Below, in pieces: positions 8,910 to 24,802 of a DNA stretch of 64,000 nt. Under the pieces are notes generated by a model. That model searched no databases. It was not told the origin of the DNA and saw only the letters and a list, made by a program, of their open reading frames with translations. Each line of letters begins with the position of its first letter. Position 1 is the stretch's first letter. The DNA comes from an uncultured virus (IMG/VR IMGVR_UViG_3300032299_001001). Taxonomy: Duplodnaviria; Heunggongvirae; Uroviricota; Caudoviricetes. The translations under genes and the position numbers were made by a program. Location: positions 1 to 64,000 of the IMG/VR virus record IMGVR_UViG_3300032299_001001. The stretch is one strand, 5' to 3'.

Positions 8910-11228
8910 ATGAACCCCACACCTGAAGAACTCGGAATTAAACCCTGCCCAGCCTCCGGCCAAGGATGCCACTCATGGATGTTCAGGGCAGCGCACGCGC
9001 TGGTTGCTAACTCTTACGATGACCAATTCATCGACCAGTGGATCACTCACTACCTTGAGCGCCCACCCCAACCCCGCGAGATCGCCGACACGGTCTCCAA
9101 AGTCCGCGCCGAGGTCGAGGGGCTGATCGAGCCCAAGGCCCGTGTCTCTCTCAAACGGGCGTTTGATCCCGAGAAGCTCAAGGCCCTGACCGCGGAAGGC
9201 CCGCTTCCGGTGGAAGATTTCCTCCAGTCCTCGCCTGTCGCGGTCGCCGACATCACCGCGTCCGAGTTCCTCCGCCGACTCTACCCAAAGCAGGCGAACA
9301 TCATCTTCACCGACCAGCAGTCCCAGGGGAAGCTCGTCTGGAACGAGACGGTGCCCGACCTATTGGTCGATAACGCGATCACTAAGAACACCGAAGGTGC
9401 GTGGATCATGGTCAACCCGGTGAACGGCAAGTTCCTCGCCATTCCGCGACTCGGTAAGAAGTCTCAACGGGCCGAGGAGAACTTGGTCGCCTACGAATAC
9501 CTCCTCATCGAATCCGATTCGGTCGAGATGGAACTCTGGCTCCGTGTCCTCTCCAAGCTCGACCTCCCGATCGTCACGGTGACGACCTCGGGCTCGAAGT
9601 CCGCTCACGCTCTCGTGCGCGTTGGCCAGAAAGACCGCGAAGGCTACTTGGCCCGTGCCGCGGAGATCGCCGATCTCGTCGTCCCGCTCGGCGCGGACCC
9701 CGCTGCCATGTCCGCGGTGCGCCTGACCCGGGTTCCAGGTTGCATCCGCAAGGACACGGGGAAAGCTCAGACCTTGATCTACTTCAACCCGGAGGCGGGA
9801 GTTTTAATCCCATCGAGCGGGATGGGATTAGAATCAAGCGACGAAGTATCAGATAATGATACAAACTGTCAGGATTCGACAGCTTCTAGCAAACCGTCCA
9901 CTTCCGCAGAGAAGAGTGGACAGTATGACGACATCTACTACGACGGGAAAACCTTCTTCATGCGAGCGGGCGACGGGATCTGGCGCTACGAGATGGTCGC
10001 GATGCTGTCCAGTGAACTCAAATGCCGCAACATCTCCGACCGAGCCCCGAAAGGTGCAGCCATGTCGCCAATGGACCGCGCCAAAGCATTCATCCGCGAA
10101 CACCGCCGGGTCGATGGTGCCGGCCCCAGCCTATACAACCCGAACGAACTTTGGTTTGAGGGGGGCAAGAAATACCTGAACACCGCCAAGAACGTGAAGA
10201 TTATGCCCGCGGCCGAGACCGCCGGAGCTTGGGGTGTCGAGTTCCCCCGCTACGCAGCCATCCTCGACAACGTCTTCGCCCACCTCGACTACCGCGACTT
10301 CTTCATGGCGTGGCTGAAACGCTTCTACGAGTCCGCGGAAAAAGGGAAACTCTGCATGGGGCAAGCCATGATCCTGGTCGGACCCGTCCACTGCTATAAG
10401 ACCTTCTTCATCGAGCGCCTCCTCAAGCCGGCGATGGGCGGCTACGCCGACCTTAGTTCCATCGTCTCGGGCGAGGGCAACGGATTCAACGCCGACCTCT
10501 TCCAGTCCCCGCTCGCGATCATCGACGACACCAAGGCCGCGGAGAGTGAGGCCCAGACCAACCGCTACTCCTCGGCCATCAAGAAGCTCGTGGCGCACGG
10601 CACCCACAAATACCACGAGAAGTATCTGACCCCGATCATGGTCGAATGGCGCGGCCGAGTCGTCATCGCCGCCAACGACGATCCAGTCTCAATCAAAGCG
10701 GTCCCCGCTCTCGATATGTCCAACAAGGACAAGATCATCGCGCTCGCCCTCAAGACCTTCGAGGAAGGGCCGACGGTCGACGATCTCAAGGACGTGGAGA
10801 TCGAACTGCCGGCCTTCCTCGCGTGGCTCAAGGCTTGGGATATCCCCGCCAAATATATCGACGCGGCCAACCGCTACTATGTGATGAGCTACATATCCCC
10901 GGAGGTCATGGAGAAGATCGCCGCGGCCAGCCCGTCCGCGGAACTCCGCGACACGATCAACGCTTGGTGGGACCGCCGGGATGGTAATGAATGGGAAGGC
11001 ACCGCGGTCGAACTCCACCAGTCGTTCAACGATACCTTCGACAATGCGTCCCTGACCCGCCAATGGACGGTGCGCTCGATCGGGCGGCGGTTGGGTGAAC
11101 TCCAGAGCCAAGGTGACCCGAACGTGGAACTCGTCGCGAAACGCTCGGGCAAAGCGAAACTCTACAAATACCGGCTGACCCGACCGAAGATCGAGCCGGA
11201 ACCGGAGCCAGAGCCGGAGGTGTTTTAA
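8910..11228 (+). CDS. Primase-helicase (AEP/RepB-like primase plus SF3/DUF5906-like NTPase)
   Basis: LLIESD, SGSKSAHALV and RLTRVPG primase motifs; Walker A-like GPVHCYKT, IIDD, IAAN. Confidence 0.8.
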   Translation: MNPTPEELGIKPCPASGQGCHSWMFRAAHALVANSYDDQFIDQWITHYLERPPQPREIADTVSKVRAEVEGLIEPKARVSLKRAFDPEKLKALTAEGPLPVEDFLQSSPVAVADITASEFLRRLYPKQANIIFTDQQSQGKLVWNETVPDLLVDNAITKNTEGAWIMVNPVNGKFLAIPRLGKKSQRAEENLVAYEYLLIESDSVEMELWLRVLSKLDLPIVTVTTSGSKSAHALVRVGQKDREGYLARAAEIADLVVPLGADPAAMSAVRLTRVPGCIRKDTGKAQTLIYFNPEAGVLIPSSGMGLESSDEVSDNDTNCQDSTASSKPSTSAEKSGQYDDIYYDGKTFFMRAGDGIWRYEMVAMLSSELKCRNISDRAPKGAAMSPMDRAKAFIREHRRVDGAGPSLYNPNELWFEGGKKYLNTAKNVKIMPAAETAGAWGVEFPRYAAILDNVFAHLDYRDFFMAWLKRFYESAEKGKLCMGQAMILVGPVHCYKTFFIERLLKPAMGGYADLSSIVSGEGNGFNADLFQSPLAIIDDTKAAESEAQTNRYSSAIKKLVAHGTHKYHEKYLTPIMVEWRGRVVIAANDDPVSIKAVPALDMSNKDKIIALALKTFEEGPTVDDLKDVEIELPAFLAWLKAWDIPAKYIDAANRYYVMSYISPEVMEKIAAASPSAELRDTINAWWDRRDGNEWEGTAVELHQSFNDTFDNASLTRQWTVRSIGRRLGELQSQGDPNVELVAKRSGKAKLYKYRLTRPKIEPEPEPEPEVF

Positions 11229-11230
11229 CC

Positions 11231-11560
11231 ATGCACAACGCTGGTGAATTAGAAACGCTCCGCGGCATCTGTCGGCTGGCACTGTGCCCCGAAACCTTGG
11301 ACGGGGATTGGCAAAACGCCGCTACCGCGTTCTTCGGATTTTGTCGGGACCGGCAGATCAACCCGTTCAGGATCGAACTACCCAAAGAAGAAAAGAAGGG
11401 TGACTTCGACTTCAAAATGCCGCAGGGGAAACACAAAGGACGGTCTATGCGCTGGATTGTCGAAAATGACGCGCCCTACGCCGAGTGGTGCGTGGAGAAT
11501 ATGAATTCCGCTTGGATCCGAAACAAATTTATAGAGCTTTTCGAGGAAGCCAGCGTATGA
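11231..11560 (+). CDS. Hypothetical protein with a DUF3820-like MPxGKHKG motif
   Basis: MPQGKHKGRSMRWIVENDAPYAEW. Confidence 0.55.
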   Translation: MHNAGELETLRGICRLALCPETLDGDWQNAATAFFGFCRDRQINPFRIELPKEEKKGDFDFKMPQGKHKGRSMRWIVENDAPYAEWCVENMNSAWIRNKFIELFEEASV

Positions 11561-11982
11561 ACGCCAAATGGACCGCGAGGTTTATTAACTTAGCCTCGCA
11601 CGTTGCCACATGGTCCAAGGACCCCAGTAGCCAAGTCGGGGCCGTCATCGTCCGGCCAGACCGCTCGATCGCCTCAGTCGGCTTCAATGGGTTCCCCCGC
11701 GGGGTCGAGGATCGGGTGGATAGAATTAGCGATAGATCTGCAAAACTGTTGTTCACTTTGCACGCCGAGATGAATGCCATCCTCGGGGCCAAGGAGCCCC
11801 TCCAGGGCCACTCGATCTTTGTCTACCCCTTCCAGCCGTGCGCCCACTGCGCGGCTGCTATCGTCCAAGCAGGCATCAAAGAAGTCTACTGCCCGGAGCA
11901 CTCGGTTCCCCGATGGGAGGAGAGCTTCGCTGCCGCACGCACCATGTTCCATGAAGCAGGAACCGTGGTTCGGTGGATCTAG
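11557..11982 (+). CDS. dCMP deaminase
   Basis: SKDPSSQVGAVIV, GFNGFPRG, HAEMNA, PCAHC. Confidence 0.92.
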   Translation: MNAKWTARFINLASHVATWSKDPSSQVGAVIVRPDRSIASVGFNGFPRGVEDRVDRISDRSAKLLFTLHAEMNAILGAKEPLQGHSIFVYPFQPCAHCAAAIVQAGIKEVYCPEHSVPRWEESFAAARTMFHEAGTVVRWI

Positions 11983-12080
11983 TTCGCTAGAACTACCCAA
12001 ACGCCTCCTCACCTCCTCGCTGGTCGACGGGACAAGCTGCACCGGAAAATGATACATGGTTCCTATGTGCTTATTTAGGG

Positions 12081-12357
12081 GGAACTATGATATTAGTTCC
12101 ACCCTAAGTTCCCTCGCATAACCCAATGCCCGATAGGGGCTTATGCCAAAAGGGAACTGAGGAACTCACTTTTCGGGAAAACCCTACTGTCGTGCGCGTC
12201 CGCGGGGGACGGATTTCGGGGGTATATAATATATTTTCTATGAGAGAAAGTATAAGGGTAAGTTCCTCAGTTCCCTTTTGACGTAAGTATACTGTCCATC
12301 AGCGAGTTAAGTGTGGGAACTATGGGGGGAACTATTAGGGGAACTTTGCATAGTTCC
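12081..12357. repeat. Iteron/inverted-repeat region, candidate replication origin
   Basis: 11 GGAACT/AGTTCC hexamers; perfect 20-bp inverted repeat 12147-12166/12261-12280 around an AT-rich core; non-coding gap between convergent genes. Confidence 0.65.
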
Positions 12358-12374
12358 CATCGGGCACCTCGAAG

Positions 12375-12524
12375 TCAACCCTGCCGGCTGACGATATAGA
12401 GCCCGATCTGGGCGAAAGCATATCCGCCCCACACGATCGCCAACGGCCACTTACCGGATAACGCCATCTCAATCGCAACCCAAGCGTAGGCCACGCCGGT
12501 CGCCGCGATCAGCCAGCCGGACAC
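12375..12524 (-). CDS. Small membrane protein
   Basis: GTG start; SGWLIAATGVAYAWVAI...WGGYAFAQIGL, two hydrophobic segments. Confidence 0.55.
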   Translation of the reverse strand: MSGWLIAATGVAYAWVAIEMALSGKWPLAIVWGGYAFAQIGLYIVSRQG

Positions 12525-12742
12525 TACCAGACCCTCAGATCGCGCTCGGAGAGGATCTCGGCCAGTTTCTCGCGGACCTTGTCGAAGATCGCGTATTCTT
12601 CGGCCGAGTGGTCGGCGTACTTGGTCTCGGACTTGAGGTAGTTGAAGAGGTCGTCGACCGCCCATCGCCAATCGGAGCCCTTCCGGGCGTCGGTCAGGGC
12701 CTCGTCGTCTTGGGGGAGGTTGAACTCCAGGGTGGCTTTCAT
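12524..12742 (-). CDS. Phage hypothetical protein
   Basis: MKATLEFNLP..D N-terminus typical of a widespread small phage family. Confidence 0.65.
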   Translation of the reverse strand: MKATLEFNLPQDDEALTDARKGSDWRWAVDDLFNYLKSETKYADHSAEEYAIFDKVREKLAEILSERDLRVW

Positions 12743-12905
12743 AAAGTGGGATTGTTAATATAGCATCACGCCGGGGAGGTTCCTGCCGGCCCCGAGAAAA
12801 GTTAATAATTCCATTTTGGGTGAAAAAATTTACAGCCCATGATAATGATAGATCTAGGGGCGAGTCGGGTGCCTGGCCCTGACAGTGGTGGGGTGGGTGG
12901 CGGTG

Positions 12906-13412
12906 TCACAAGGGTTCGGAATCTTTGTGTCCGACAGAGTAATCACCCTCTATTGTGTCACTTTGTATACTTTGCAGCGTTGACCCGGAATCGGTGTAAC
13001 TCCCTAACAATGCGATGTTTACCACGTTCTTGTCCTCCTGCCTATCGAGGCCAACAATCTTCCCCGCTATCTCTGTAGCAATCTTTACCTTGTCAGCCTT
13101 GGCAAGCAGTTGGTCTTCAGGTAGTTGCGAAGCATAGGTAGTCATTCGGCTTCCAATGGTGTGGATATTTTCCCGGATAGCTTCCCGGCGCTCTGCCCAA
13201 ATGTCCCGCGCTATCTCCGTGCTTTTCTCTGTAATCTGTTCCTTGCGTTCCTTCTCTGTTCCGACGATCGCGTTCCATCCTTTCTTGGAAGCCTTTGCGC
13301 GTAAGGTATTTGCGTTGATCCCGAAGCGTTCCGAAAGAGTCGCAACCGGGACGCCTTGAAGGTAGAGACCTTTCACCACGTCCCAATCAACCGGAAGAGA
13401 AGCCTTGGGCAT
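12906..13412 (-). CDS. terS: Terminase small subunit (putative)
   Basis: DWDVVKGLYLQG...LSERFGINANTLRAKASKKGW N-terminal HTH typical of TerS. Confidence 0.65.
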   Translation of the reverse strand: MPKASLPVDWDVVKGLYLQGVPVATLSERFGINANTLRAKASKKGWNAIVGTEKERKEQITEKSTEIARDIWAERREAIRENIHTIGSRMTTYASQLPEDQLLAKADKVKIATEIAGKIVGLDRQEDKNVVNIALLGSYTDSGSTLQSIQSDTIEGDYSVGHKDSEPL

Positions 13413-13472
13413 TGACCCATATTACTCTGTTATGGTGTTATTTCAACCGAGTGCTGGCCGCTTGTTTATGTA

Positions 13473-13703
13473 ATGAGCAAGAAACACTTCATCAAAATCG
13501 CGGCAATGATCCGTGAAACACTCAACGTTGGACGCCGCATCAAAGTCGAAACGCAAGCTGATCCAGTTAAGGCGGAAGACTTCAATCGTGGAGTCGAGTA
13601 TGCCGCGCATGTTATTGCGAGCAATCTCGCCTTCATCTTCAAGCAAGAAAATCCCCGCTTCGACCGTGCACGGTTCCTTGAAGCGTGCAACGTGAACCAC
13701 TGA
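13473..13703 (+). CDS. Early phage hypothetical protein (NPRFD family)
   Basis: MSKKHFIKIA...FKQENPRFDRARFLEAC. Confidence 0.7.
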   Translation: MSKKHFIKIAAMIRETLNVGRRIKVETQADPVKAEDFNRGVEYAAHVIASNLAFIFKQENPRFDRARFLEACNVNH

Positions 13704-13736
13704 AACAAGAACCTGCTGGCCTCTTAATTACGAACC

Positions 13737-13922
13737 ATGAAAACACTCACTGAAATCGATCGGGAGATCCAAGAGGTGCTCGCCTCCAATGGCGCTCGCA
13801 GCCTGCTCAAAGAAACACTCCGCAAAGGTATCACGGTCGACTGCGTCGACGCCTACTATGACGTGCAGTTTGCCGCCGATCTTCTGAAAGAACGCATGAA
13901 CGCAATCTTGCTGGCCTCTTAA
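13737..13922 (+). CDS. Hypothetical cassette protein
   Basis: ATG directly after repeat 2; stop codon inside repeat 3 (LLAS*). Confidence 0.7.
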   Translation: MKTLTEIDREIQEVLASNGARSLLKETLRKGITVDCVDAYYDVQFAADLLKERMNAILLAS

Positions 13923-13931
13923 TTACGAACC

Positions 13932-14321
13932 ATGAAAACACTACCCTCTCACCTCTTCATCACCTCAGAAGGTGATCTCTTCGACACTCGCAATCCGCAT
14001 TGGGCTTCGAGCCCGGTCCGGGAAAAGTATCGTTATCACTTCCGGGAGATCAATACTCCCGGGCAGTTGGCGGCGACTCTCCGCGCCGGGGGAGTCACTT
14101 TTCCGGGATGCTATCCGCTCTACTTCGTCACGCTCGGCGGCGATGCGATCTCGTTTGAATCGGTCGAAGCGAATCCCGGCCGGTATTTCAGTGAGATCCG
14201 GGACGGCGATAGCGACCGGATTATCGGCACCGACATTAACTTCGAGGACGAAAACCTTTACTGCGTCGACTCCGACGAAAAGATCCCATCCGCCTATGGT
14301 CCCGGCAACGACGAAGAGTAG
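13932..14321 (+). CDS. Acidic phage hypothetical protein (PGxYPLY family)
   Basis: FPGCYPLYF...INFEDENLYC...IPSAYG; fills the gap between repeats 3 and 4. Confidence 0.7.
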   Translation: MKTLPSHLFITSEGDLFDTRNPHWASSPVREKYRYHFREINTPGQLAATLRAGGVTFPGCYPLYFVTLGGDAISFESVEANPGRYFSEIRDGDSDRIIGTDINFEDENLYCVDSDEKIPSAYGPGNDEE

Positions 14322-14343
14322 TGCTGGCCTCTTAAATACGAAC

Positions 14344-14529
14344 ATGAACATCGAAACACTCCAATACGAACAAGACACTGACCCGGCTTATTGCCCGGCG
14401 TGCGACAGTGCGGACGCTCAGATCCTCGGGCAACTTGGCAACCGGATTCACCTCCGGTGCCGGGGATGCGGATGGGATTTCAGCTTCGTCCGTGAGCAAT
14501 CCGAAACCTTCACCTTCAACCAACACTAA
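14344..14529 (+). CDS. Zn-ribbon protein
   Basis: CPAC...LGQLG....RCRGCGW; ATG just after repeat 4. Confidence 0.65.
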   Translation: MNIETLQYEQDTDPAYCPACDSADAQILGQLGNRIHLRCRGCGWDFSFVREQSETFTFNQH

Positions 14530-14537
14530 TCGAAACC

Positions 14538-14843
14538 ATGAACAAATACGGTAAAGCGATCAAAGAAACTGGAAGCAAATCCAAGTTGGCCCGGGCGGCG
14601 GCGGAGGTTTTCCGCAACCACGGCGACAACTATCCCGAGGATGGACCGATTAAGCTACCCGACAACGTCATTGACGAGATCGCCAAGGATCTCATCCTCG
14701 CCGGGATCCCTTTGAGTGCCGTGCAGGATCTCGACGACCGGCCTTACGAGTTTCTCACCTATGATCTCGCATCGCACATTCACTGGATCTCGCGCCGGTT
14801 CCGTAACTCGGGCGGATGGGATCTCCTCGAAAGCGACCACTGA
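14538..14843 (+). CDS. Hypothetical protein
   Basis: AACC-ATG start context shared with neighbours. Confidence 0.6.
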   Translation: MNKYGKAIKETGSKSKLARAAAEVFRNHGDNYPEDGPIKLPDNVIDEIAKDLILAGIPLSAVQDLDDRPYEFLTYDLASHIHWISRRFRNSGGWDLLESDH

Positions 14844-14860
14844 ACCCTGAATCACGCACC

Positions 14861-15079
14861 ATGAACCCGGACATCCTAACCAAGGACCAGAGAATCAAAC
14901 GCACGCGGAAAGTGGCCCGAGTGATCTTGGACTACACGCCCGGCGAAGATGCCGGGACCGGCTTGATTGATTTGCTCACGGACGCCTTGCATCTCTATGG
15001 CGAGGAACAGGTCCGGTTCCATCTGGACTGGGCCTTAGAGCATTATCACGCTGAGACCGGGGAAGTGCTGGCCTCTTAG
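14861..15079 (+). CDS. Hypothetical cassette protein
   Basis: LIDLLTDALH motif; stop codon inside repeat 5 (VLAS*). Confidence 0.65.
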   Translation: MNPDILTKDQRIKRTRKVARVILDYTPGEDAGTGLIDLLTDALHLYGEEQVRFHLDWALEHYHAETGEVLAS

Positions 15080-15123
15080 TCTTGACAGTCTTAATCACTT
15101 ACACGCATAACACCACAAAACCC

Positions 15124-15633
15124 ATGACCAACTACCTTACTCCTCTGAAAGAAATCGTCTCCAACCCGAGTGGTTGGGACTCGCTCGACAACTATGCCGG
15201 CGCGATTCCGGAACCTGAGTGGCTTTGCCTACTCACCCAGTCCCGGGACTCGGATTGCCTGACCGAGAGCAACTTTCGTTCGGCGCTCCGGGAACTCGGC
15301 GGCGAGAGTGACAACGTATCCATCGACCGGTTTGGCCATTGGGCCTGCGGATGGTGGGAATCGTTGTCGGTCCGCGCCGGGTCCCCGGAGCATGAGAAGG
15401 CGAAAGAGATCGCCGATAAGCTCGAAGACTACCCGGTCGTCGACGAAGACGACTTCTCGGAACTCGAAGACGAGACCGCCCAACGAGTGTGGTGCGACTG
15501 CTACAGCGACCGCGACCGGGTGCAGTATATCCGGGATCACGGAAACCAATTCGATTTCCACAACTATGCCGACCTCCTTGGTTGCGCCCGGGGCAAATAC
15601 TTCTCCGGGTATGCCGGGGAACTTCTTCACTAA
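15124..15633 (+). CDS. Acidic phage hypothetical protein
   Basis: ESNF...RFGHWACGWWE...YPVVDEDDFSELE. Confidence 0.7.
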   Translation: MTNYLTPLKEIVSNPSGWDSLDNYAGAIPEPEWLCLLTQSRDSDCLTESNFRSALRELGGESDNVSIDRFGHWACGWWESLSVRAGSPEHEKAKEIADKLEDYPVVDEDDFSELEDETAQRVWCDCYSDRDRVQYIRDHGNQFDFHNYADLLGCARGKYFSGYAGELLH

Positions 15634-15668
15634 ACGTAATAACACCACACTGCTGGCCTCTTAATTCG

Positions 15669-15989
15669 ATGAACAAATACACCAAACACACTCCCGGGCC
15701 TTGGACCGTGAACTCCGAGGGGCAAATCACTGACCTGCAAGGCCGGACGATCGTCCCGAACGTGCACGCGCACAATGTCCCAAGCAACGCATTCCCCCGG
15801 GGATCTGGGCAATACGTTGCCGAGGATGACGGTGGCGTTGCCAACGCCCGACTCATCGCCGCCGCCCCCGACCTCCTCGATGCGCTCGAAGAGGCGATCG
15901 AAGTGGTTGGAAGTTGGGGAGATGACGGCGACCCATCATGGCTCGAACGGGCTAAATCCGCGATCGCCAAAGTGGGAGGTGCCGAATGA
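15669..15989 (+). CDS. HTPGPW...ANARLIAAAP family protein, copy 1
   Basis: Both motifs visible; ATG just after repeat 6. Confidence 0.7.
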   Translation: MNKYTKHTPGPWTVNSEGQITDLQGRTIVPNVHAHNVPSNAFPRGSGQYVAEDDGGVANARLIAAAPDLLDALEEAIEVVGSWGDDGDPSWLERAKSAIAKVGGAE

Positions 15990-16279
15990 GCAACAACCAA
16001 CACACTCCCGGCCCTTGGTTTTACGAAGGGCAAAACATCCGCAACGGTGACGGCTTGGACGTTGCAACCGTCGACTCGGAACGATCCACCGAACGCTGCA
16101 CGTCTGACCGCATACCTCTGAAAGAGTGGACAGCGAACACGCATCTCATCGCCGCCGCGCCCGACCTACTCGCGGCATTAGAAGCGGTCGATGGATATTG
16201 GGCTGGCGGGGATGCTCCCGAAGAGTTGGCCGCGCAAATCCGCGCAGCAATCGCCAAGGCCGAAGGAGGTGCCGAATGA
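15986..16279 (+). CDS. HTPGPW...ANARLIAAAP family protein, copy 2
   Basis: HTPGPW and ANTHLIAAAPDLL; paralog of the upstream gene. Confidence 0.7.
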   Translation: MSNNQHTPGPWFYEGQNIRNGDGLDVATVDSERSTERCTSDRIPLKEWTANTHLIAAAPDLLAALEAVDGYWAGGDAPEELAAQIRAAIAKAEGGAE

Positions 16280-16365
16280 AAAACCCAACCCTCGATCACC
16301 TCATCGCCGGCCTGGCCCTGCTCCTTGTCTTCATGCAACTCGTCGACTGGATCATCCCGACCTGA
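16276..16365 (+). CDS. Small membrane peptide (29 aa)
   Basis: MKNPTLDHLIAGLALLLVFMQLVDWIIPT; stop abuts repeat 7. Confidence 0.5.
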   Translation: MKNPTLDHLIAGLALLLVFMQLVDWIIPT

Positions 16366-16414
16366 GTGCTGGCCTCTTAATTACGAACCCTTAACCCAAA
16401 CGAAAGAAACCCAA

Positions 16415-17173
16415 ATGAGCTACACCGAAACAATCGACATCGACGGATACCGAGTAGAAATCGCGCAAGACAGCACCCCGGCGAATCCGCTGGAGGAGTT
16501 TGACTGCGATCCTCCGACCCTCGTGTATAACGAAGGGCTGACCCGCTACAATAACCCGCCGGACATCAACTACCTCGTGCGGAAGATCCCCGCCGAACAG
16601 TTTGCCCGGGGGCAACGTGTCCACTTGATCCGTGAATACCTGAACGTCAGTCTCCGCGAGTTTGTCCAGCATCGCCGGTATTCTGAACTCAGTGTCCGGG
16701 ATGCCTTCGCCGAACTGTTGGCCGATCAACACCCGGAGCCCGGTTTCCGGTCATGGCCGACTGACTACTTCGAGACCCTCGAATCCTTGGCCAACCTCGC
16801 CGGGATCCCCTGCTACTACGCGACAAGCCGGGGCTACTGCCAAGGCCACTCCGCGCTGGTCATTGCCTTTGCGACTCCCGAGTGGGCCGCGAAGGTCGGT
16901 GCCCCGGCCGATAGCTGGGCTAGTCAGTGCGAAGGTGCCTTTGACCTCTATACCGCATGGGCATGGGGGGATGTCTATGGCATCGCCTCAATCACTGACC
17001 CGGACGGCAACGAAGTGGAAGACGGTTCCGTCTGGGGATTCTATGCCAGCGACCATGAGCAAAGCGGTTTGCTCGATAGCGCCCGGGACTCGATTTCCTA
17101 CCACAAAAAACAATCCGCGCTCGAAGCGATTGAAGCCTCTGTATGGGCAGCGCGGGATACCGTCACCGTTTGA
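16415..17173 (+). CDS. Phage hypothetical protein (WxWGDVYG...WGFY family)
   Basis: SRGYCQG, WAWGDVYG, SVWGFY; lies between repeats 7 and 8. Confidence 0.7.
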   Translation: MSYTETIDIDGYRVEIAQDSTPANPLEEFDCDPPTLVYNEGLTRYNNPPDINYLVRKIPAEQFARGQRVHLIREYLNVSLREFVQHRRYSELSVRDAFAELLADQHPEPGFRSWPTDYFETLESLANLAGIPCYYATSRGYCQGHSALVIAFATPEWAAKVGAPADSWASQCEGAFDLYTAWAWGDVYGIASITDPDGNEVEDGSVWGFYASDHEQSGLLDSARDSISYHKKQSALEAIEASVWAARDTVTV

Positions 17174-17200
17174 AGTGCTGGCCTCTTAATTACGAACACT

Positions 17201-17455
17201 ATGAACCCTGAAACCATTAACGCCATAGAGCGAAACATTAACATCGTCTACCGCTGGTGGAGAGACGACGACAAAGAGATTCGTCCCGAGCACGTCGAAG
17301 CCTTGGAGGAAGCCGCCGAAGAACGAATCTTTGAAAAACTAGCTGAAGGCTATCGATCCGGGATTTTATCCGACCATATACGATTCGACGACGAAGACCC
17401 GGAAGACGGCCAAGAATATAGCGGCTGGTTCGAAATCAACTTCGACAACCAATAA
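17201..17455 (+). CDS. Acidic hypothetical protein
   Basis: EGYRSG.L...YSGWFEI; ATG just after repeat 8. Confidence 0.65.
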   Translation: MNPETINAIERNINIVYRWWRDDDKEIRPEHVEALEEAAEERIFEKLAEGYRSGILSDHIRFDDEDPEDGQEYSGWFEINFDNQ

Positions 17456-17473
17456 ACAAACCATGAACAAACC

Positions 17474-17785
17474 ATGAACAAACCAACACCCATATTAGAC
17501 GAACTCCGGATCACGGTAGAAGGCGCGGTCGCGCTCTTCGATTCGGAGGCCAACGAAGATCATCCCGACCCGATCGATGATGCGATCGAACTGGTCCGTG
17601 AAGCGGAGGAACTTTTGCCGGCAATCCTCGAAGAGCACAAAGAACTCATCGCCTCCCTGCGCGAGTGCGTTGCCCGACTCGAAAGTCTCGACGACCGGCT
17701 CCTCAAATCAACCGGCAGTGTCAAAGACTCCGAACTCGGGGAGATCACCCGCGCCCGGGCGCTCCTCGCCAAACTGAAACCATGA
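17474..17785 (+). CDS. Hypothetical protein
   Basis: ORF with AACC-ATG start context. Confidence 0.6.
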   Translation: MNKPTPILDELRITVEGAVALFDSEANEDHPDPIDDAIELVREAEELLPAILEEHKELIASLRECVARLESLDDRLLKSTGSVKDSELGEITRARALLAKLKP

Positions 17786-17967
17786 ACCCCGCAACCCGAC
17801 TTCAGGAACTACGTGAGGCGATCGAAGAGGAATACATTTCCTATGCTGAGATCATCGAGCTTCAAGACCTCGCGCAATCAAACCCCGAACTGTTTTTCGG
17901 TGATCCCCTGCTCGCTGAGTGGGCCGGGATTCCGGAAGGCGACTATCATCAAGTGCTGGCCTCTTAA
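17782..17967 (+). CDS. Hypothetical cassette protein
   Basis: ISYAEIIELQ...DPLLAEWAGIPE; stop codon inside repeat 9 (VLAS*). Confidence 0.65.
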   Translation: MNPATRLQELREAIEEEYISYAEIIELQDLAQSNPELFFGDPLLAEWAGIPEGDYHQVLAS

Positions 17968-17978
17968 TAGTGAAGACT

Positions 17979-18407
17979 ATGAAAAAGAACCTCATCAAAT
18001 TCAACATCGGCGACCGGGTGCGTTGCATTACCCGGCCGAGTAAAAACATCCTTGGGGAGCGTCACGAATATGGTGTCGTCGTCCCTTACCGGGGCGAGCA
18101 TAACCCGAAGTCGCCTCGGATTCGCTGGAACACTGGGTGGGGCTTCAATGTCCCGGCGGACGAGATTGTCCGGATTACCCCGGAAGAGGAGACATTGTTT
18201 CCCGAAATACAATTAGCCGACATCGATCGGGCGGTGGCTTCACCACGTATAACTAAACCAATACGTAACACCGTCACAACCACCCATTACATCATCAGTG
18301 ACAAAGAGGGGATCTGGCTAACCACAACACCGGCACCGAGCGACGAGATCCTTTTTACCACTACCGATAAAACCGAGGCCGAGTATGCCCTTTGCCGGTA
18401 TCTCTGA
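17979..18407 (+). CDS. Hypothetical protein with an SH3/KOW-like N-terminus
   Basis: FNIGDRVR...GVVV; fills the gap between repeats 9 and 10. Confidence 0.55.
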   Translation: MKKNLIKFNIGDRVRCITRPSKNILGERHEYGVVVPYRGEHNPKSPRIRWNTGWGFNVPADEIVRITPEEETLFPEIQLADIDRAVASPRITKPIRNTVTTTHYIISDKEGIWLTTTPAPSDEILFTTTDKTEAEYALCRYL

Positions 18408-18435
18408 CTAAGTGCTGGCCTCTTAGAAGTGAACC

Positions 18436-18615
18436 ATGAAAACCAACCTAATCTTCGACACCGCCGCGCAATTCAATGCGACCCATGACTACGACATCGA
18501 CGCAGCACTGCACCTGACATCGGTCGTCCTGCGTCACGCTCACCTCGTTCAGCTTGCCCGGAAAGAGCAAGCCGACCCGCAACTCACCCTCCCCATCGAA
18601 ATTGATGGCGAGTAA
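18436..18615 (+). CDS. Hypothetical protein (59 aa, not in the ORF track)
   Basis: Manual translation MKTNLIFDTAAQF...PQLTLPIEIDGE*; ATG just after repeat 10. Confidence 0.55.
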   Translation: MKTNLIFDTAAQFNATHDYDIDAALHLTSVVLRHAHLVQLARKEQADPQLTLPIEIDGE

Positions 18616-18644
18616 TAACACCACAAAAAGAAACCATAAATACC

Positions 18645-19325
18645 ATGAGCAAGAGAACCATCGAAATCGAAGACACCCTGCAAGAGCGCGTCGACAGTGC
18701 GATCGAGGACGTGAAAACCGAACTCATTAGCTACTGCGACGAAAACGAACCGGACAAGCTGCCCGATCTCGGCAACGACCTCGACTACTCGGGGACGATT
18801 CACGAGATCGTCGACGGCTCGGTGCCGATTTACAACAACGAGATCCGGGACATATTCTACCTCCACGGATCAGAAGTAGAGGAGGCGTTCGACAACGCCG
18901 GCTTCGACAGTAAAGACGACAAAGACTGGCCGCTCGGGTGGAAACCCGCCGCGATTTACAGCTACATCCAAGAGCAAGTCCACGAATGGTATAACGACCA
19001 TGCCGAGGATGTTTTCGAGGAGTGGCAGGAGAAGCACCGGGCGAAGAAGCTCGCCGGAATCGAAATCTTCGAGGTCACGGCCGGTGACTTCCTCAAGGCC
19101 GAGGCCGGGACTTGGCAAGCCGATCGGGTGGCCGAGGAGTTGAAGCGGCTCACCGCGGAACGCGACTACGATCAGGCATGGATCGACGATATGACCGAGC
19201 AGATCGCGAAAGCATACGCCGGTTTCTACTGGTGGTCCTGCCAACCGGGATGCCTCCCGGACGGCGAGGCCAATGGCCCCTTCGAGACCCGTGAAGAGGC
19301 CGAAGAGGATGTGCTGGCCTCTTAG
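18645..19325 (+). CDS. Ocr (T7 gp0.3)-like DNA-mimic antirestriction protein with an extra C-terminal domain
   Basis: Highly acidic; IHEIVDGSVPIYNNEI..IF resembles T7 Ocr IHMAADNAVPHYYADIF as recalled; ends inside repeat 11. Confidence 0.65.
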   Translation: MSKRTIEIEDTLQERVDSAIEDVKTELISYCDENEPDKLPDLGNDLDYSGTIHEIVDGSVPIYNNEIRDIFYLHGSEVEEAFDNAGFDSKDDKDWPLGWKPAAIYSYIQEQVHEWYNDHAEDVFEEWQEKHRAKKLAGIEIFEVTAGDFLKAEAGTWQADRVAEELKRLTAERDYDQAWIDDMTEQIAKAYAGFYWWSCQPGCLPDGEANGPFETREEAEEDVLAS

Positions 19326-19386
19326 GCATGACGCACTGAAGCGTTGAACCCTGAACCATGAACCAAGTAGAAAGGACCCAAAACCA

Positions 19387-19617
19387 ATGAAAAAATTCAA
19401 ATACTACAAAGTGTCCACGACTGACGGCAACGGTCACCAAGGATACACTTACACGACAAGCAAGGCCGAAGCGGAGCGAGCGAAGCAAACCTTTTTCGAT
19501 ATGAGCGAAGGCGACAGTTTCGCAGACGCAGATATCTTCGAAATCGAAGTCGAGCCCACCAAGCGCGGCATCCTCAATGCCTTGCTAGTCCACGCCAGCC
19601 ACCCCGACAACGGATGA
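19387..19617 (+). CDS. Hypothetical protein
   Basis: ORF with A-rich leader. Confidence 0.6.
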   Translation: MKKFKYYKVSTTDGNGHQGYTYTTSKAEAERAKQTFFDMSEGDSFADADIFEIEVEPTKRGILNALLVHASHPDNG

Positions 19618-19666
19618 TCCAAACATTCGTTTGAACGAGTAATAACTCCGCACTGTCGTATTAACC

Positions 19667-20107
19667 ATGAGCAAACCCGAGACGCGGACCCAAACGCGAG
19701 TCGAAGTCACAAAGGACGGTATGCGCTTCCGTCCGCGTCTCGTCACCCATAACCAAAGAAAGAAAGAACCAAACACCATGAACTATAGAGAATTCGATCC
19801 CAATAATGCTTGCCTCCCTACCGAGGCTTACCACTATCTGGCCTTGGCCTTGGCCGAGCAGGACAAACCCGCAACCCGCTGGCCCCGCCGCTTTTGGCAT
19901 TGGCTTATCGGGGCTACCCCGCTCATCGTCGCGGCGGCTTTCCTGCCCTTGGCTGACCCGCCAGCGGATCACCTCATCCCTCTGGCCCATCGGGTCAGCG
20001 CCGAGAGTAAGATCCACAGCCTTGTCTGGGTGCAGCCGCTCCCCGGCAAGAGACTGCCGGCACCTCCGACCCTGCCGTCCATTAACGAAAACCCGTATAG
20101 CTTCTAA
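19667..20107 (+). CDS. Hypothetical membrane protein (alternative start 19778)
   Basis: Hydrophobic segment WLIGATPLIVAAAFLPL; GTAATAAC upstream. Confidence 0.5.
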   Translation: MSKPETRTQTRVEVTKDGMRFRPRLVTHNQRKKEPNTMNYREFDPNNACLPTEAYHYLALALAEQDKPATRWPRRFWHWLIGATPLIVAAAFLPLADPPADHLIPLAHRVSAESKIHSLVWVQPLPGKRLPAPPTLPSINENPYSF

Positions 20108-20109
20108 CC

Positions 20110-20352
20110 ATGACCCTTCCTGAAAAACCCACTACCGACACCTTTGTCCGCGACCAGATCCGGACCCGGGTCTCCCAGTTCATCAACAAAGCCGCCTGCA
20201 AACAATATCTCATGGATTATGCCGACCAGACCCGGCACCACAAATTCAGCCGGGTCGACTCGGAGATCTTCGATGAGCTTAATGCCGTCCTGCGTAAGCA
20301 CATGCGGACAATCATCAGCCGCAACCCCTCCTTTGGTAAGACCCTCCGATGA
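20110..20352 (+). CDS. Hypothetical protein
   Basis: INKAACKQYL...FSRV...NPSFGKTL. Confidence 0.6.
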   Translation: MTLPEKPTTDTFVRDQIRTRVSQFINKAACKQYLMDYADQTRHHKFSRVDSEIFDELNAVLRKHMRTIISRNPSFGKTLR

Positions 20353-20394
20353 TACTCCACTTGCCTTGGTTTAATAACGCCATACATTGCTCCT

Positions 20395-20772
20395 ATGCAA
20401 GTGACGGTAACCGAGCGGACCTTCGGTCTGAAGGTCAGGGTCAAAGTCGGGGGCGATGCGCTCTCGGCTTGGCGCTCGGCGACCAAGTTCACCGACACCT
20501 TATCTACTGACGGGGATGACGACGAATCCGATGCGGGTTGGGCGCTATCCAACGCAAACCGGGCTTTCGTCTGGCTCAAGTCCTGGCCCGAGTCGCGGAG
20601 AAAAGGGAACAGCAAGACCCTGACCCATGAGTGCGTCCATGTCGCCATGAGCTTCCTCCGTGACCATGTCCGCGAGGACATCCGCAAAGCCGAAGAGACC
20701 TGCTGCTATCTGGTGCAGCACTTGGTCGATGAGATCGAACACAAGCTCAACAACCGGAAGAAATCCCGATGA
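20395..20772 (+). CDS. Small zincin-like (HExxH) protein
   Basis: LTHECVH...EETCCYL. Confidence 0.6.
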   Translation: MQVTVTERTFGLKVRVKVGGDALSAWRSATKFTDTLSTDGDDDESDAGWALSNANRAFVWLKSWPESRRKGNSKTLTHECVHVAMSFLRDHVREDIRKAEETCCYLVQHLVDEIEHKLNNRKKSR

Positions 20773-21077
20773 ACAAAGAAAAACTCTGGGCTATTTTCCT
20801 GCACAATAATCCCCGGCTCGCTACCGAACCGGAAATGAACCCGGAGGCGCTGCGCCGGTTCTTCGACCTGACATGGAATGCCGCCTACGAGGCCGGGGCC
20901 GAGGATATGGCCGAGCGGGAGTGCGAGATCGATGGCGGGGCTCCGGAACAAGCGCAAGCGAAAGCCGATGAAACGGTTGCCGACGCGATCGCCGAAGCGT
21001 TGGCTGCATTCCTCGGGCCGGCCGTCGAGACCAAGAAGATCTATGTTAAAAAAGCGAACAAGAAGAAAGCTGACTAA
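20769..21077 (+). CDS. Hypothetical protein
   Basis: ATGA-coupled ORF. Confidence 0.55.
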   Translation: MNKEKLWAIFLHNNPRLATEPEMNPEALRRFFDLTWNAAYEAGAEDMAERECEIDGGAPEQAQAKADETVADAIAEALAAFLGPAVETKKIYVKKANKKKAD

Positions 21078-21346
21078 AGAGGAGAGCGACGGCGCACAAG
21101 CGTGGAAGAATCGCTTCGTGGAAAGCTACGACCGCGAACTCTCGATCGTCGACAACCTCCGGGTCGCCGTCGGTCTGATCGACCTTTTCAACTACGGCGA
21201 TGCCAAGTCGATGGTGCAGTCAGTCATCGACCGCCACGACCAAGAGACCAAGGAGTTATTGGCATGATGGAGCCCCGCGACATCACGCTGGTTCTGCTCG
21301 TCGCATGGGCCGCTTTTGCCACGGTCATTTTCTTTCGGTATTTTCT

Positions 21347-21529
21347 ATGAAACGTAAAAGCAAAAGCACAGTCAACGCGGCCGGCAATTACACCAAGCCG
21401 ACGATGAGGAAGCGCCTATTTCAGAAGATCAAATCCGGAAGCAAGGGCGGAGACTCAGGCGAGTGGAGCGCCCGCAAGGCGCAGATGCTCGCCAAACAAT
21501 ACAAAGCCAAAGGCGGAGGCTACCGATGA
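21347..21529 (+). CDS. Small basic protein (DUF5872-like, first part)
   Basis: NYTKP..RKRLF..IK.G.KGG..GEWSARKAQMLAKQYKAKGGGY. Confidence 0.7.
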   Translation: MKRKSKSTVNAAGNYTKPTMRKRLFQKIKSGSKGGDSGEWSARKAQMLAKQYKAKGGGYR

Positions 21530-21756: not shown

Positions 21757-21760
21757 GACT

Positions 21761-24785: not shown

Positions 24786-24802
24786 TTTCATCGGGGTAGT
24801 CT

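Follow-up and report, generated by a model that had tools for sequence, protein, structure and literature searches.

Introduction

What does a 13-nt sequence do when it recurs, always in the same orientation, at gene boundaries in the early region of an uncultured lake virus of the class Caudoviricetes? The window analyzed here is a stretch of 64,000 nucleotides (IMG/VR IMGVR_UViG_3300032299_001001, positions 1 to 64,000). An earlier note, made from the letters alone, described this part of it as a modular array of anti-defense cassettes in which the repeat acts as a crossover site for gaining, losing or shuffling genes. The repeat is most likely a gene-expression signal, the identical copies of which also mark the points where single gene units are gained and lost.

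The repeat and the array

The 13 letters TGCTGGCCTCTTA are present between 13452 and 19324 in 10 exact copies and one variant with two mismatches, each of them on the + strand. The 11 same-orientation copies of the earlier note are the same sites, some shifted there to the preceding G. Matches with up to two mismatches (n = 11) were compared with 100 shuffles, in which the random expectation was 0.81 (sd 0.91, largest 3) and none of the 100 reached 11. Outside the array, neither strand of the 66,433-bp genome holds a further copy or a 9-10-nt sub-word of TGCTGGCCTCTTA.

13473..19617, + strand: array, 17 small genes grouped into 11 repeat-led units
13452..13464, + strand: copy 1 (head), TGCTGGCCGCTTG, two mismatches, in the 60-bp divergent region between a helix-turn-helix (HTH) protein gene and the first array gene
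13714..13726, + strand: copy 2, ahead of gene 13737-13922
13909..13921, + strand: copy 3, ahead of gene 13932-14321; its own TAA terminates gene 13737-13922
14322..14334, + strand: copy 4, ahead of gene 14344-14529
15066..15078, + strand: copy 5, followed by gene 15124-15633 after a 45-nt leader
15651..15663, + strand: copy 6, ahead of gene 15669-15989
16367..16379, + strand: copy 7, followed by gene 16415-17173 after a 35-nt leader
17176..17188, + strand: copy 8, ahead of gene 17201-17455
17954..17966, + strand: copy 9, ahead of gene 17979-18407
18413..18425, + strand: copy 10, ahead of gene 18436-18615
18645..19325, + strand: Ocr-like anti-restriction gene, 226 aa, pI 4.2
19312..19324, + strand: copy 11, the last; its own TAG terminates the Ocr-like gene, and gene 19387-19617 begins 62 nt on
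19344..19394, + strand: conserved non-coding element with TGAACC heptad repeats, which closes the variable array

The full repeat unit is 24 nt long, A-S-TGCTGGCCTCTTA-A-T-N-N-Y-G-A-A-C, and is situated between a stop codon and an ATG, ahead of 11 of the 17 early genes (one Ocr-like). Its profile, drawn from 38 distinct contexts, has a sharp edge, conservation starting only at position -2. An AT-rich stretch fills positions 14-18, with C or T at position 18 in 36 of the 38 contexts; G stands at position 19 in 35 and is followed by A20, A21 and C22. The ATG had been said to follow often via TTACGAAC, and G-A-A-C does occupy positions 19-22 in most of these contexts; it stays there even when the ATG is 20-45 nt further downstream. 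The repeat has the orientation of its gene in 47/47 copies from five sequences, and the core is exact in 39 of their 44 non-head copies, the flanking genes being 82-98% identical.

The placement of the copies at gene boundaries was correctly seen. When a downstream ATG is counted only if it opens an ORF of at least 30 codons, it lies 5-12 nt after the 13-mer in 8 of the 11 copies, the remaining gaps being 35 and 45 nt in two copies and 62 nt in the last. The stop codon of the upstream ORF lies 0-10 nt ahead of the 13-mer, and the TAA or TAG of the repeat is itself the stop of four genes (ending at 13922, 15079, 17967 and 19325), whose products have C-termini of the form ...(L/V)LAS. Each repeat-led unit holds 1-3 genes, with tight, repeat-free internal junctions (ATGA overlaps, 8-18 nt). 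Starts lacking a Shine-Dalgarno (SD) sequence are common among the array genes with and without the repeat; the absence of SD after the repeat thus does not speak specifically for transcripts with short leaders.

Many of the proteins were expected to be acidic, and the pI is below 5.5 in 15 of 17; none of the 17 has a Pfam family at E ≤ 0.01. The product of gene 18645-19325, already noted as Ocr-like, matches phrog_2568, 'ocr-like anti-restriction' (E 3e-4), and its homologs carry PF08684, presumably the ocr family. The gene was found in the relatives G001, G002 and G003, not in G004 or G005. The modular array of the earlier note holds in that the region is hyperplastic, with small, mostly acidic orphan genes and one Ocr-like gene, and in that the repeat is the border of the units. 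Its statement that attC-type palindromes are lacking also holds, the array having no recurrent hairpin, and Rfam gave no match over 11000-26000 apart from a tRNA. The element at 19344..19394 is 98% identical in G004 and 85% in G005, despite their different arrays.

Gain, loss and order of units in related genomes

Three complete relatives have 13, 17 and 3 copies of the repeat, and other relatives have short, genome-specific hairpins in its place. Genomes of the window's lineage have 10-16 near-identical copies besides the head copy, before ~60% of early genes, and the three copies of G003, a hairpin-type genome, are exactly on the two cassettes that it has in common with the window; the repeat thus moves together with genes. 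G001 lacks unit C (13909-14321), G002 has it replaced, and the window in turn lacks units O, Q and R of its relatives. In a 3,395-nt contig of run X7 gene 17201-17455 is gone and the repeat stands directly before gene 17474. In contigs from other lake samples the repeat has different neighbors; many of the joints there have sides of just 21-24 nt, no more than the repeat. The repeat may also be exchanged for another start signal: gene 18436 has the clade's ribosome binding site GAAAGGAAC in G004 and G005 where the window has the repeat, and gene 17474 differs in the same way between G003 and G001.

Gene content was predicted to change exactly at the repeats. Whole repeat-to-repeat units do differ, but only 27 of 50 homology-block boundaries are at a repeat, which is far over the uniform expectation (~12%) but not over the ~60% of gene junctions that have a repeat (binomial p 0.84). 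Other breakpoints are at gene junctions without the repeat (window 14840 and 17470). Since the shared cassettes are collinear in all four complete genomes, no shuffling is seen, contrary to the earlier proposal.

The head copy and the neighboring HTH gene

A related 13-mer is present at the head position in 11 of 11 related loci covering the site, including those of relatives without array copies. Hairpin-type genomes have the form TGCTGGTCACTT(A/G), whereas the form of the window's lineage is TGCTGGCC(G/T)CTTG; in all 11 loci the 13-mer is followed by an AT-rich 5-mer and then by G at position 19. Head copies differ from array copies in having G, not A, at position 13 in four of the four genomes of the lineage. 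The crossover site of the earlier note agrees with the variation of whole units between relatives, but not with the retention of the head copy in relatives that have no array copies. Conservation of the head copy in every relative covering the site points to an expression or regulatory role as primary, with crossover as a consequence. The promoter or operator of the array must be confined to the 60-130-bp divergent space that holds this copy.

12906..13412, - strand: HTH protein gene, 168 aa, N-terminal helix-turn-helix, transcribed away from the array
13419..13446, - strand: sigma-70-like match TTGAAA-16-TAATAT, 9/12 matches, 6 nt short of the HTH-gene ATG

The HTH gene was found in 5 of 5 relatives. 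Pfam assigned Terminase_5 to 22 and Sigma70_r4_2 to 16 of 36 homologs of its product. The structure model has three short helices at residues 10-43 and long helices after them, with a pLDDT of ~82 for the HTH only. The protein may regulate the head copy or may instead be the small terminase subunit, a possibility raised because there is no other candidate next to the large terminase gene (TerL). The sigma-70-like match ends 6 nt from the ATG, so that an mRNA started from it would be leaderless; matches at 9/12 are not more frequent than in shuffles.

Proposed function of the repeat

Judged from sequence, the leading reading, held at about even odds, is that a strand-specific gene-start signal of 24 nt has the repeat as its 13-nt core and serves as a DNA site for transcription control. 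One sequence-specific protein would read this site and control transcription of each 1-3-gene unit, and the site may have multiplied from the head copy. Our single best guess, a tentative one, is a compact promoter in which the 13-mer would be the binding region, the five AT-rich bases would melt, and transcription would start at or near G19, so that most units would have leaders of 4-8 nt. An operator of the neighboring HTH protein is nearly as likely, the head copy then being the true operator and the array copies polar road-blocks resembling stoperators. Under transcription control, gain and loss of cassettes would be a by-product of recombination at the copies. With 24-nt copies identical to one another and AACC-ATG-AA a common gene start, there would be microhomology for the recombination genes of the phage:

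661-1221: RusA
1345-3756: helicase-exonuclease

A repeated expression signal, mentioned only as an alternative in the earlier note, is closer to this reading than is cassette crossover.

Promoters of T7-type single-subunit RNA polymerases are ~23-24 nt long, with an invariant upstream block, an AT-rich stretch of 4-5 nt and G at the start, and occur in many co-oriented copies at gene borders. The phage repeat has in common with them its length, its block layout, the G at the presumed start and the co-oriented copies at gene borders. The leaders would, however, be far shorter than those of T7, and a gene for such a polymerase was not found in the genome: the large ORFs and the 3755-aa virion protein, searched against Pfam, PHROGs and PDB sequences, gave no phage RNA polymerase or sigma factor, and a conserved DxDxD motif is lacking. 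A sigma-70 -35/-10 layout was rejected for the copies, as the consensus scan had no match at them, and a sigma-54 layout was rejected on our own reading, there being no GC at the -12 place.

The main rival, distinctly less probable than transcription control, is an RNA-level start-associated element in a long early mRNA, through which a host or phage factor or the ribosome would initiate, re-initiate or repress translation of the gene that follows, as has been proposed for the 13-bp start-associated sequences (SAS) of Cluster K mycobacteriophages. Of 40 distinct contexts, 23 have the first base of the ATG at repeat positions 22-28; an SD-like word is present in 0/23 of these leaders vs. 5/13 longer ones, and the ATG is the start codon of every downstream gene. 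The upstream stop is inside the repeat or at most 10 nt away in most copies, and the interchange of the repeat with GAAAGGAAC before genes 18436 and 17474 fits as well. The 13-mer is also somewhat more open in predicted RNA folds than with shuffled flanks (0.45 vs. 0.38, z 3.7, 25/37 copies), but this effect is small and G-poor gene starts may alone account for it. Junctions of the array that lack the repeat have SD-less AACC-ATG starts just as often, which means that such starts do not require it; upstream of the head copy there is no same-strand gene from which to re-initiate; and the repeat has no SD, its CCTC resembling the anti-SD instead.

The other explanations are much less probable. 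A dedicated recombination site, at which single units would be excised or inserted by cassette crossover, possibly by the clade's tyrosine recombinase, is improbable, although units C/P, O, Q and R vary from genome to genome and end in the repeat on both sides, and the contigs from other lake samples link it to different neighbors. The earlier note saw no integrase, which is true within the window; just beyond its end, the genome encodes at 64794-66020 what is probably a tyrosine recombinase, judging by a protein-atlas score of 0.99 to clusters carrying PF00589, an R...K...LRH...Y pattern invariant in six genomes, and sub-threshold Pfam and NCBIfam integrase matches in the correct order. But it is found equally in relatives without array copies and has no match to integron integrases. 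Tyrosine recombinases use sites with inverted symmetry and a central overlap region, and the repeat has neither. The collinear cassettes, the lack of an excess of block boundaries over random gene junctions, the breakpoints at repeat-less junctions, and the many contig joints with sides no longer than the repeat also stand against such a site, and a head copy kept where there is nothing to exchange implies another primary role. Very unlikely is a signal of the boxA kind, acting in the nascent RNA on antitermination or elongation. The partial likeness of CTCTTAA to boxA, remarked on in the earlier note for lambda nut, would extend to rrn operons, and the copies are strand-specific with one at the operon head; but known boxA signals act once per operon, whereas there are 10-16 copies within 6-9 kb here, the most conserved part, TGCTGGCC, has no boxA counterpart, and a boxB-like hairpin after the repeat is absent in the window, the tRNA being the only Rfam match. 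We give as little credence to a site of DNA metabolism, whether for Chi-like protection, a strand-specific nick, or packaging (pac) by the HTH protein as terminase. All copies are on one strand, the HTH neighbor looks like a small terminase subunit, and GCTGG is common to the repeat and E. coli Chi, the likeness behind the earlier Chi-like idea; but none of these roles accounts for the 24-nt length, the fixed stop-to-ATG placement at gene starts or the limitation to one 6-kb array.

Relation to known systems

Integron attC/IntI arrays likewise run in one direction, have small genes unrelated to each other and a repeat wherever these meet, and go with a tyrosine recombinase gene in the genome. 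Unlike them, the phage array has no attC-like imperfect palindromes, its repeat is nearly invariant whereas attC sites vary, its recombinase is not adjacent, has no IntI match and is also present in repeat-less relatives, and its cassette order is conserved. An integron-like mechanism is unlikely.

SAS, the function of which was still a proposal as of 2025, is also a 13-bp asymmetric repeat in a single orientation that, like the phage repeat, occurs only in the non-structural genome part. Each is separated by a few bases from an ATG downstream, with the upstream stop at times within the repeat, and in both the same gene family has or lacks the repeat, depending on the genome. SAS has companion inverted repeats, with a consensus that differs by sub-lineage, and lineage-specific hairpins are present in the sister genomes here. 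In contrast to SAS, which has the SD core AGGAG 3-7 bp from the start, the phage repeat lacks an SD, leaves 5-14 nt to the ATG and is followed by GAAC as a further conserved block. The two sequences are not alike and come from unrelated phage groups, and all relatives here have one copy at the operon head.

The stoperators of Cluster A mycobacteriophages (L5 gp71 type), in the passages of PMC9283540 that describe them, are also asymmetric 13-mers, with one site at the early promoter and the rest in short intergenic spaces, oriented according to the direction of transcription. The L5 repressor, of ~180 residues with an N-terminal HTH, is comparable to the 168-aa N-terminal-HTH protein encoded beside the head copy (PMC9283540). 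Unlike the genome-wide stoperators of that account, the copies here are in one array only. The putative HTH regulator here may instead be a small terminase subunit, and a fold search gave no significant match between it and the solved stoperator repressor (rank 43, E 3.7). The probable tyrosine recombinase is the only hint of a temperate life here; a prophage copy was not found.

The promoter-early stem-loops (PeSLs) of T4-type phages, in the portions of PMC2839356 and PMC4122927 that deal with them, are also regulatory motifs repeated between stop and start codons in hyperplastic regions rich in small orphan genes. They bound indels and replacements between close relatives, and recombination from copy to copy was proposed as a by-product of the regulatory element (PMC2839356; PMC4122927). 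PeSLs are, however, described there as longer and as built from a stem-loop, an SD and a sigma-70 consensus promoter, three parts that the phage repeat lacks. Mini-circles have been demonstrated for PeSLs (PMC2839356; PMC4122927).

The repeat and its copies

A short word that recurs in one orientation at gene boundaries of the early region was reported in the earlier note, and that observation holds. At no more than two mismatches TGCTGGCCTCTTA has 11 matches, all on the + strand between 13452 and 19324, against a chance expectation of 0.81 (sd 0.91); 11 was reached in none of 100 shuffles. Ten copies are exact and the first, at 13452, reads TGCTGGCCGCTTG. A search of both strands of the 66,433-bp genome for the 13-mer and its 9–10-nt sub-words found none elsewhere. 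With the copies from relatives, taken at the same threshold, the set comes to 47: 11 in the window, 13, 17 and 3 in the complete relatives G001, G002 and G003, and 3 on L064, a contig of 1.4 kb. All 47 run in gene direction.

The profile was drawn from the 38 contexts left once near-identical ones had been dropped. It is sharp: conservation ends at −2, with none further upstream, and the 13-mer core is nearly invariant. An A stands at −2 in 31 of the 38 contexts, and a G or C at −1 in 35. After the core come A14 (29/38), T15 (28/38), two loose positions, a C or T at 18 (36/38), G19 (35/38) and then A20, A21 and C22. The GAAC is fixed even where the ATG lies 20–45 nt downstream, and is thus part of the repeat, not of the start-codon context. 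On this alignment the repeat unit is 24 nt long, a linear 24-mer without symmetry.

The phage and its source

Bases 1–64000 are taken from a single contig of 66,433 bp, which belongs to a novel tailed phage. In a megablast search of 50,697 phage records nothing matched 13000–20000, and the DNA polymerase has distant matches alone, below 33% identity. The genome is laid out as follows.

0.6–12 kb, + strand: RusA, helicase-exonuclease, split DNA polymerase, primase, dCMP deaminase
13.4–25.4 kb, + strand: small genes
25.4–64.5 kb, − strand: 3755-aa virion protein (25454–36721, − strand), tail and head genes, endolysin, large terminase subunit TerL
64794–66020 (L089:4794–6020), + strand, just past the end of the window: probable tyrosine recombinase, 408 aa

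The sequencing runs that contain the array are DNA from lake-water metagenomes of 17 studies; none is RNA. A capsid fragment 94% identical to 48949–50124 lies on a 5-kb contig (L090/L093, G006) binned in a metagenome-assembled genome (MAG) titled Cyanobium sp. A search of 300 other genomes from the MAG's order gave no capsid match, the capsid-protein search found no prophage copy, and the MAG has no 16S. The repeat occurs in it at chance level, with two one-mismatch matches vs. one for a control. The protein-atlas neighbours of the recombinase are chiefly from Verrucomicrobiota.

Relatives and the head copy

Sixteen viral-contig loci of relatives were found through the primase, at 71–96% identity. 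Three of these alone carry the repeat (L009, L010 and L016, which are G001, G002 and G003), with whole-record counts at no more than one mismatch of 12, 16 and 3; the counts for the relatives G004 and G005 are 0. The copies lie on a single strand and in the array only. A scan of all viral contigs gave 41 matching stretches, the multi-copy contigs being G001–G003 only, and a metagenome scan gave five, of which one, L064, is a true relative.

Other relatives have short hairpins at the same type of junction, uniform within a genome and different between genomes, followed by the clade's ribosome-binding site (RBS) GAAAGGAA(A)C. There are 6–8 of them between early genes in L002, L005, L006, L008, L011, L014, L015 and L016, where the arrays lie downstream of the primase. 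They vary between genomes by paired changes in both arms (GTCCG.., GTCGC.., GTTCG.., GTCGG..), a pattern suggestive of concerted evolution or else of co-evolution between hairpin and binding protein.

The diverged first copy at 13452, here called the head copy, lies between a gene for a predicted helix-turn-helix (HTH) protein and the first array gene. Its layout is alike in each of the 11 loci that reach the start of this small − strand gene: the gene's start codon, a 60–130-bp spacer, a repeat-related 13-mer, an AT-rich 5-mer and a G. The 13-mer is TGCTGGTCACTT(A/G) in six hairpin-type loci, CGCTGGTCACTTA in G003 and TGCTGGCC(G/T)CTTG in L009, L010 and the window; the head site of L014, the eleventh and most distant locus, is much diverged. 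Since this layout is found throughout the covered loci, one head copy appears to be ancestral to the clade and to have multiplied in the window's lineage.

Position of the repeat relative to genes

Leaders were surveyed in 40 distinct contexts, heads included, up to the next ATG with 35 or more codons behind it. The A of this ATG falls at repeat position 22–28 in 23 contexts, at 17–21 in 4 and beyond 28 in 13, and every downstream start is ATG. A Shine-Dalgarno (SD)-like word is present in 0 of the 23 short leaders and 5 of the 13 long ones, and none was found in the repeat. AACC-ATG starts without SD are the rule in the window's array whether the repeat is present or absent, so the absence of SD is not specific to the repeat. 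The upstream open reading frame stops 0–36 nt ahead of the repeat or uses the repeat's own TAA/TAG, which is why four proteins of the window end in (L/V)LAS.

The same gene may stand behind different signals. In the window and G001 the repeat precedes gene 18436, which in G004 and G005 stands behind GAAAGGAAC; gene 17474 has the repeat ahead of it in G003, an RBS in G001, and in the window neither of the two. The same genes behind the repeat, a classical RBS or neither form a natural comparison set. In sister genomes lineage-specific hairpins occupy the same type of junction, and one ancestral copy heads the operon everywhere. With this set, promoter, operator and RNA signal could be told apart directly by a small number of constructs.

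A second junction motif, TAATAAC-n-CC-r-CA, has 21 copies across the window, each in the local gene direction (for example at 3754, 8897, 15637, 18613 and 19640 on the + strand and 36750, 40907, 45157, 50159, 58868 and 60927 on the − strand). Most are the double stop of the upstream gene, with the next ATG 6–30 nt further on, and the motif is conserved among relatives.

Genes of the array

The array holds 17 genes in 11 repeat-led units. Junctions within units are tight (ATGA overlaps, 8–18 nt) and free of the repeat. The pI is below 5.5 in 15 of the 17 products, and none of the 17 matched a Pfam family at E ≤ 0.01. The gene at 18645–19325 is Ocr-like: it matches phrog_2568 (E 3e-4), and many of its 332 homologues carry PF08684, which we take to be the ocr family. 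The units bordered by the repeat carry likely anti-defence genes, one of them Ocr-like, and the repeat could therefore be used as a handle to find such genes in metagenomes.

The genes at 15669–15989 and 15986–16279 (+) are tandem phrog_1273 paralogues, both starting ...HTPGPW, which share an ATGA overlap inside one repeat-led unit. This unit is longer in G002, with additional repeats of the same piece.

Gain and loss of cassettes

Repeat-to-repeat pieces of the four complete genomes were clustered by blastn.

Order of repeat-to-repeat cassettes in the window and three relatives (one letter per blastn cluster)
Window: A B C D E F G H I J K
G001: L M N B D D' O E F H I J K
G002: L N B P D D' Q O R E F H S J T U V
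G003: H J V

The differences are of presence and absence only. Unit C is found in the window only, with P in its place in G002; O is shared by G001 and G002 only, and Q and R are in G002 only. Both ends of each of these units lie within the repeat. Homology blocks mostly begin at −6 to 0 and finish at +14 to +49 of a copy. Inside the arrays 27 of 50 block boundaries, counted over three genome pairs that are not independent, fall within −10 to +50 of a copy in both genomes. The share expected if boundaries were uniformly placed is about 12% (p 9e-13), whereas against the roughly 60% of gene junctions that bear a repeat (11 of 17–18 in the window's array) there is no excess of boundaries (p 0.84). 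Further breakpoints lie at repeat-free junctions, at 14840 and 17470 of the window.

Contigs from four other lake runs have many joints ending at a copy. The sides of a joint are often 21–24 nt long, that is, the repeat itself, so these joints show new neighbours and not which copy was involved. On one long contig (run X7, record 22, 3,395 nt) exactly 17198–17470 is missing, and the repeat at 17176 directly precedes gene 17474, an arrangement also found in G003.

Gene content was expected in the earlier note to change at the repeats. This is so for whole units (C/P, O, Q and R), but not for the boundaries taken together, which show no excess there. Shuffling of genes at the repeat, also proposed, finds no support in the cassette order: the window, G001, G002 and G003 are collinear, so that no reordering is seen. 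The statement that attC-type palindromes are absent stands, no recurrent hairpin with a stem of at least 6 bp being found in 13.4–19.4 kb. The comparison with integrons survives in part: units do differ repeat-to-repeat, but attC hairpins, an adjoining IntI and changes of order are missing. In integrons attC sites are imperfect inverted repeats that form a hairpin at the cassette 3′ end, IntI adjoins the array and cassettes change order between relatives. Here the repeat has no symmetry, the order is collinear, and the recombinase lies some 14 kb off without an IntI-type match above cut-off.

The 408-aa protein scores 0.99 to tyrosine recombinases in a protein atlas, where PF00589 clusters make up 19 of the 30 matches. 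The motifs G-x-R-R-x-E, I-A-K, L-R-H-S and H-Y are invariant in six genomes (the R/K/R-H/Y pattern). Pfam matches, a SAM-like and a catalytic domain in the correct order, are sub-threshold. No NCBIfam or Pfam model was above cut-off; the best match, that of one homologue to an XerA-type model, has E 0.0027. A profile search of the PDB gave no match. The gene is found in genomes with and without array copies. Its identity is 34–44% in G002, G003 and G005, vs. 77–94% for neighbouring genes; by this comparison it is a fast-evolving protein. Its presence suggests that the phage is, or once was, temperate.

Any use of the repeat as a dedicated recombination site is improbable, in spite of the units that begin and end within it. 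Still less probable is the wider proposal that the repeat and the hairpins of sister lineages are recombination sites of a system for cassette exchange, operated by the divergent tyrosine recombinase of the clade; if true, a virus would carry a platform for anti-defence genes that is integron-like but lacks attC sites.

Candidate readers of the repeat

The HTH gene (12906–13412, −), which adjoins the head copy, encodes a 168-aa protein with an N-terminal helix-turn-helix, for which 114 homologues were found. Among 36 homologues Terminase_5 is matched in 22 (best E 1.5e-6) and Sigma70_r4_2 in 16. The structural model is confident for residues 10–43 only. A Foldseek search with it gave no significant match (best E 0.62); a small terminase and a Cluster A repressor both stand far down the list, insignificant. 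No other candidate for a small terminase was found adjoining TerL, and the HTH protein may be either that subunit or a regulator. Its ATG stands 6 nt behind the end of a sigma-70-like match, TTGAAA-16-TAATAT. A sigma-70 consensus scan of 11.5–26 kb gave 5 sites vs. 5.9 expected, with 0 at repeat copies; promoter and terminator scans likewise gave shuffle-level counts and none at the copies.

No phage RNA polymerase or sigma factor was found by Pfam, PHROGs and PDB-sequence searches of the large open reading frames, and a polymerase search in the protein atlas gave no usable match. The 3755-aa protein was negative for an RNA polymerase in Pfam, PHROGs and a PDB sequence search. A profile of its residues 560–1540 found nothing in the PDB below E 0.18, the AlphaFold model of that region is poor (pLDDT 58, pTM 0.27), and no conserved DxDxD motif was found in the protein. 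Region 1540–1800 has an invariant HExxH at 1585–1589. The C-terminal ~970 aa are conserved, and the central ~900 aa (about 1850–2780) are unrelated between lineages. Homologues carry PF18760/PF18762, presumably polyvalent-protein domains, and the protein is probably a polyvalent injected protein.

Just two genes are common to the window and G003 but missing from both G004 and G005: the Ocr-like gene and one of 103 aa, the latter absent from G002. A search for a factor specific to repeat-bearing genomes thus found none but the Ocr-like gene common to all of them, which argues for a clade-wide or host factor as the reader of the repeat.

What the repeat may be

The reading we favour, with about even confidence, is that the repeat is a DNA-level site of transcription control. 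The head copy lies in the sole space for an early promoter and operator, and the copies are strictly gene-oriented, heading units of 1–3 genes. The sequence itself, an invariant block and an AT-rich 5-mer ending in a pyrimidine and then G, points the same way. Promoters of single-subunit polymerases have such a layout, of invariant block, AT-rich 5-mer and G. As a compact promoter, a form we put forward tentatively, transcription would start near G19. T7-type promoter sets are served by a phage single-subunit RNA polymerase, whereas none was matched in the large open reading frames here. The 24-nt layout equally suits a bipartite protein site. As an operator the repeat would be a stoperator-like site of the neighbouring HTH protein, a form that we rate only a little lower than the promoter; the two forms are not mutually exclusive.

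With the stoperators of Cluster A mycobacteriophages, so far as the available part of their description goes (PMC9283540), the repeat has in common a 13-mer, an orientation rule, a copy in operator position by the early promoter, and a small HTH protein, predicted here and a repressor there. Here the head copy lies in a divergent intergenic region and the rest lie co-oriented at gene junctions. The repressor of the stoperators binds the 13-mer as a monomer, whereas the candidate here is a predicted 168-aa HTH protein with insignificant fold matches; stoperators are scattered genome-wide in temperate phages and the copies here lie at 13.4–19.3 kb only.

The main rival to transcription control, itself rather unlikely, is a start signal acting at the RNA level in the manner of the start-associated sequences (SAS) of Cluster K mycobacteriophages. 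In the sections of the reports used here (PMC3203893, PMC12699233), SAS have nearly all their formal features in common with the repeat, which is likewise 13 bp, asymmetric, in one orientation, in a non-structural region and just upstream of ATG starts; their mechanism is there still unverified after more than a decade. SAS occupy the RBS position with an SD core, whereas the repeat has no SD core. Slight support for an RNA-level signal comes from predicted folds, in which the 13-mer is a little more open than with shuffled flanks (0.45 vs. 0.38, z 3.7, 25 of 37 copies). A boxA-like signal and a Chi, nick or pac site are both very improbable readings.

Promoter-early stem-loops (PeSLs) of T4-type phages, as far as the portions drawn on describe them (PMC2839356, PMC4122927), are also regulatory repeats tied to indels in hyperplastic regions, and here indels between close relatives are bounded by the repeat (units C/P, O, Q and R). 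Their sigma-70 consensus promoter is absent from the repeat, and their stem-loop, a terminator or attenuator, has no counterpart in the window's array, while sister genomes have short hairpins at such junctions. Because no sequence is shared with SAS, stoperators or PeSLs and at least one defining feature of each is missing, the repeat is an analogue of them. Short asymmetric gene-start repeats are known from a few phage groups, and this is an independent case in an unrelated clade of uncultured freshwater phages.

Two other layouts were rejected. For sigma-54 (GG...GC), judged by eye, GC is missing from the −12 place and genes would contain the start. For a strictly leaderless reading, with a −10-like TAAT at 12–15 and the start at the ATG, just 9 of 38 contexts have T at position 17, and the ATG of the head copies lies elsewhere.

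Neighbouring elements

An Rfam scan of 11000–26000 gave one tRNA and nothing else; a tRNA-Glu (anticodon CTC) at 24802–24875 (+) closes the small-gene region. The contig ends (genome 1–70 and 66365–66433) have ~67 nt in common with 4 mismatches, including a GC-rich hairpin and then a T-run; the likeness is no clean assembly overlap.

A non-coding stretch at 12070–12370 has an AT-rich palindrome (12223–12240) surrounded by 10 or more copies of GGGAACT(A/G), which occur in both orientations. It looks like replication-origin iterons, or arm-type sites, and is 92% identical in G004. Behind the array, at 19344–19394, lies a conserved non-coding element of TGAACC heptads, 98% identical in G004 despite the differing arrays. 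It recurs near 15280 in L005, 15818 in L002 and 15268 in L008; in hairpin-type genomes it lies within a larger inverted repeat, behind the second hairpin. The HNH endonuclease gene at 22024–22536 (+), probably a free-standing mobile endonuclease, is present in the window and G001 only (99% identical) and absent from G002–G005.
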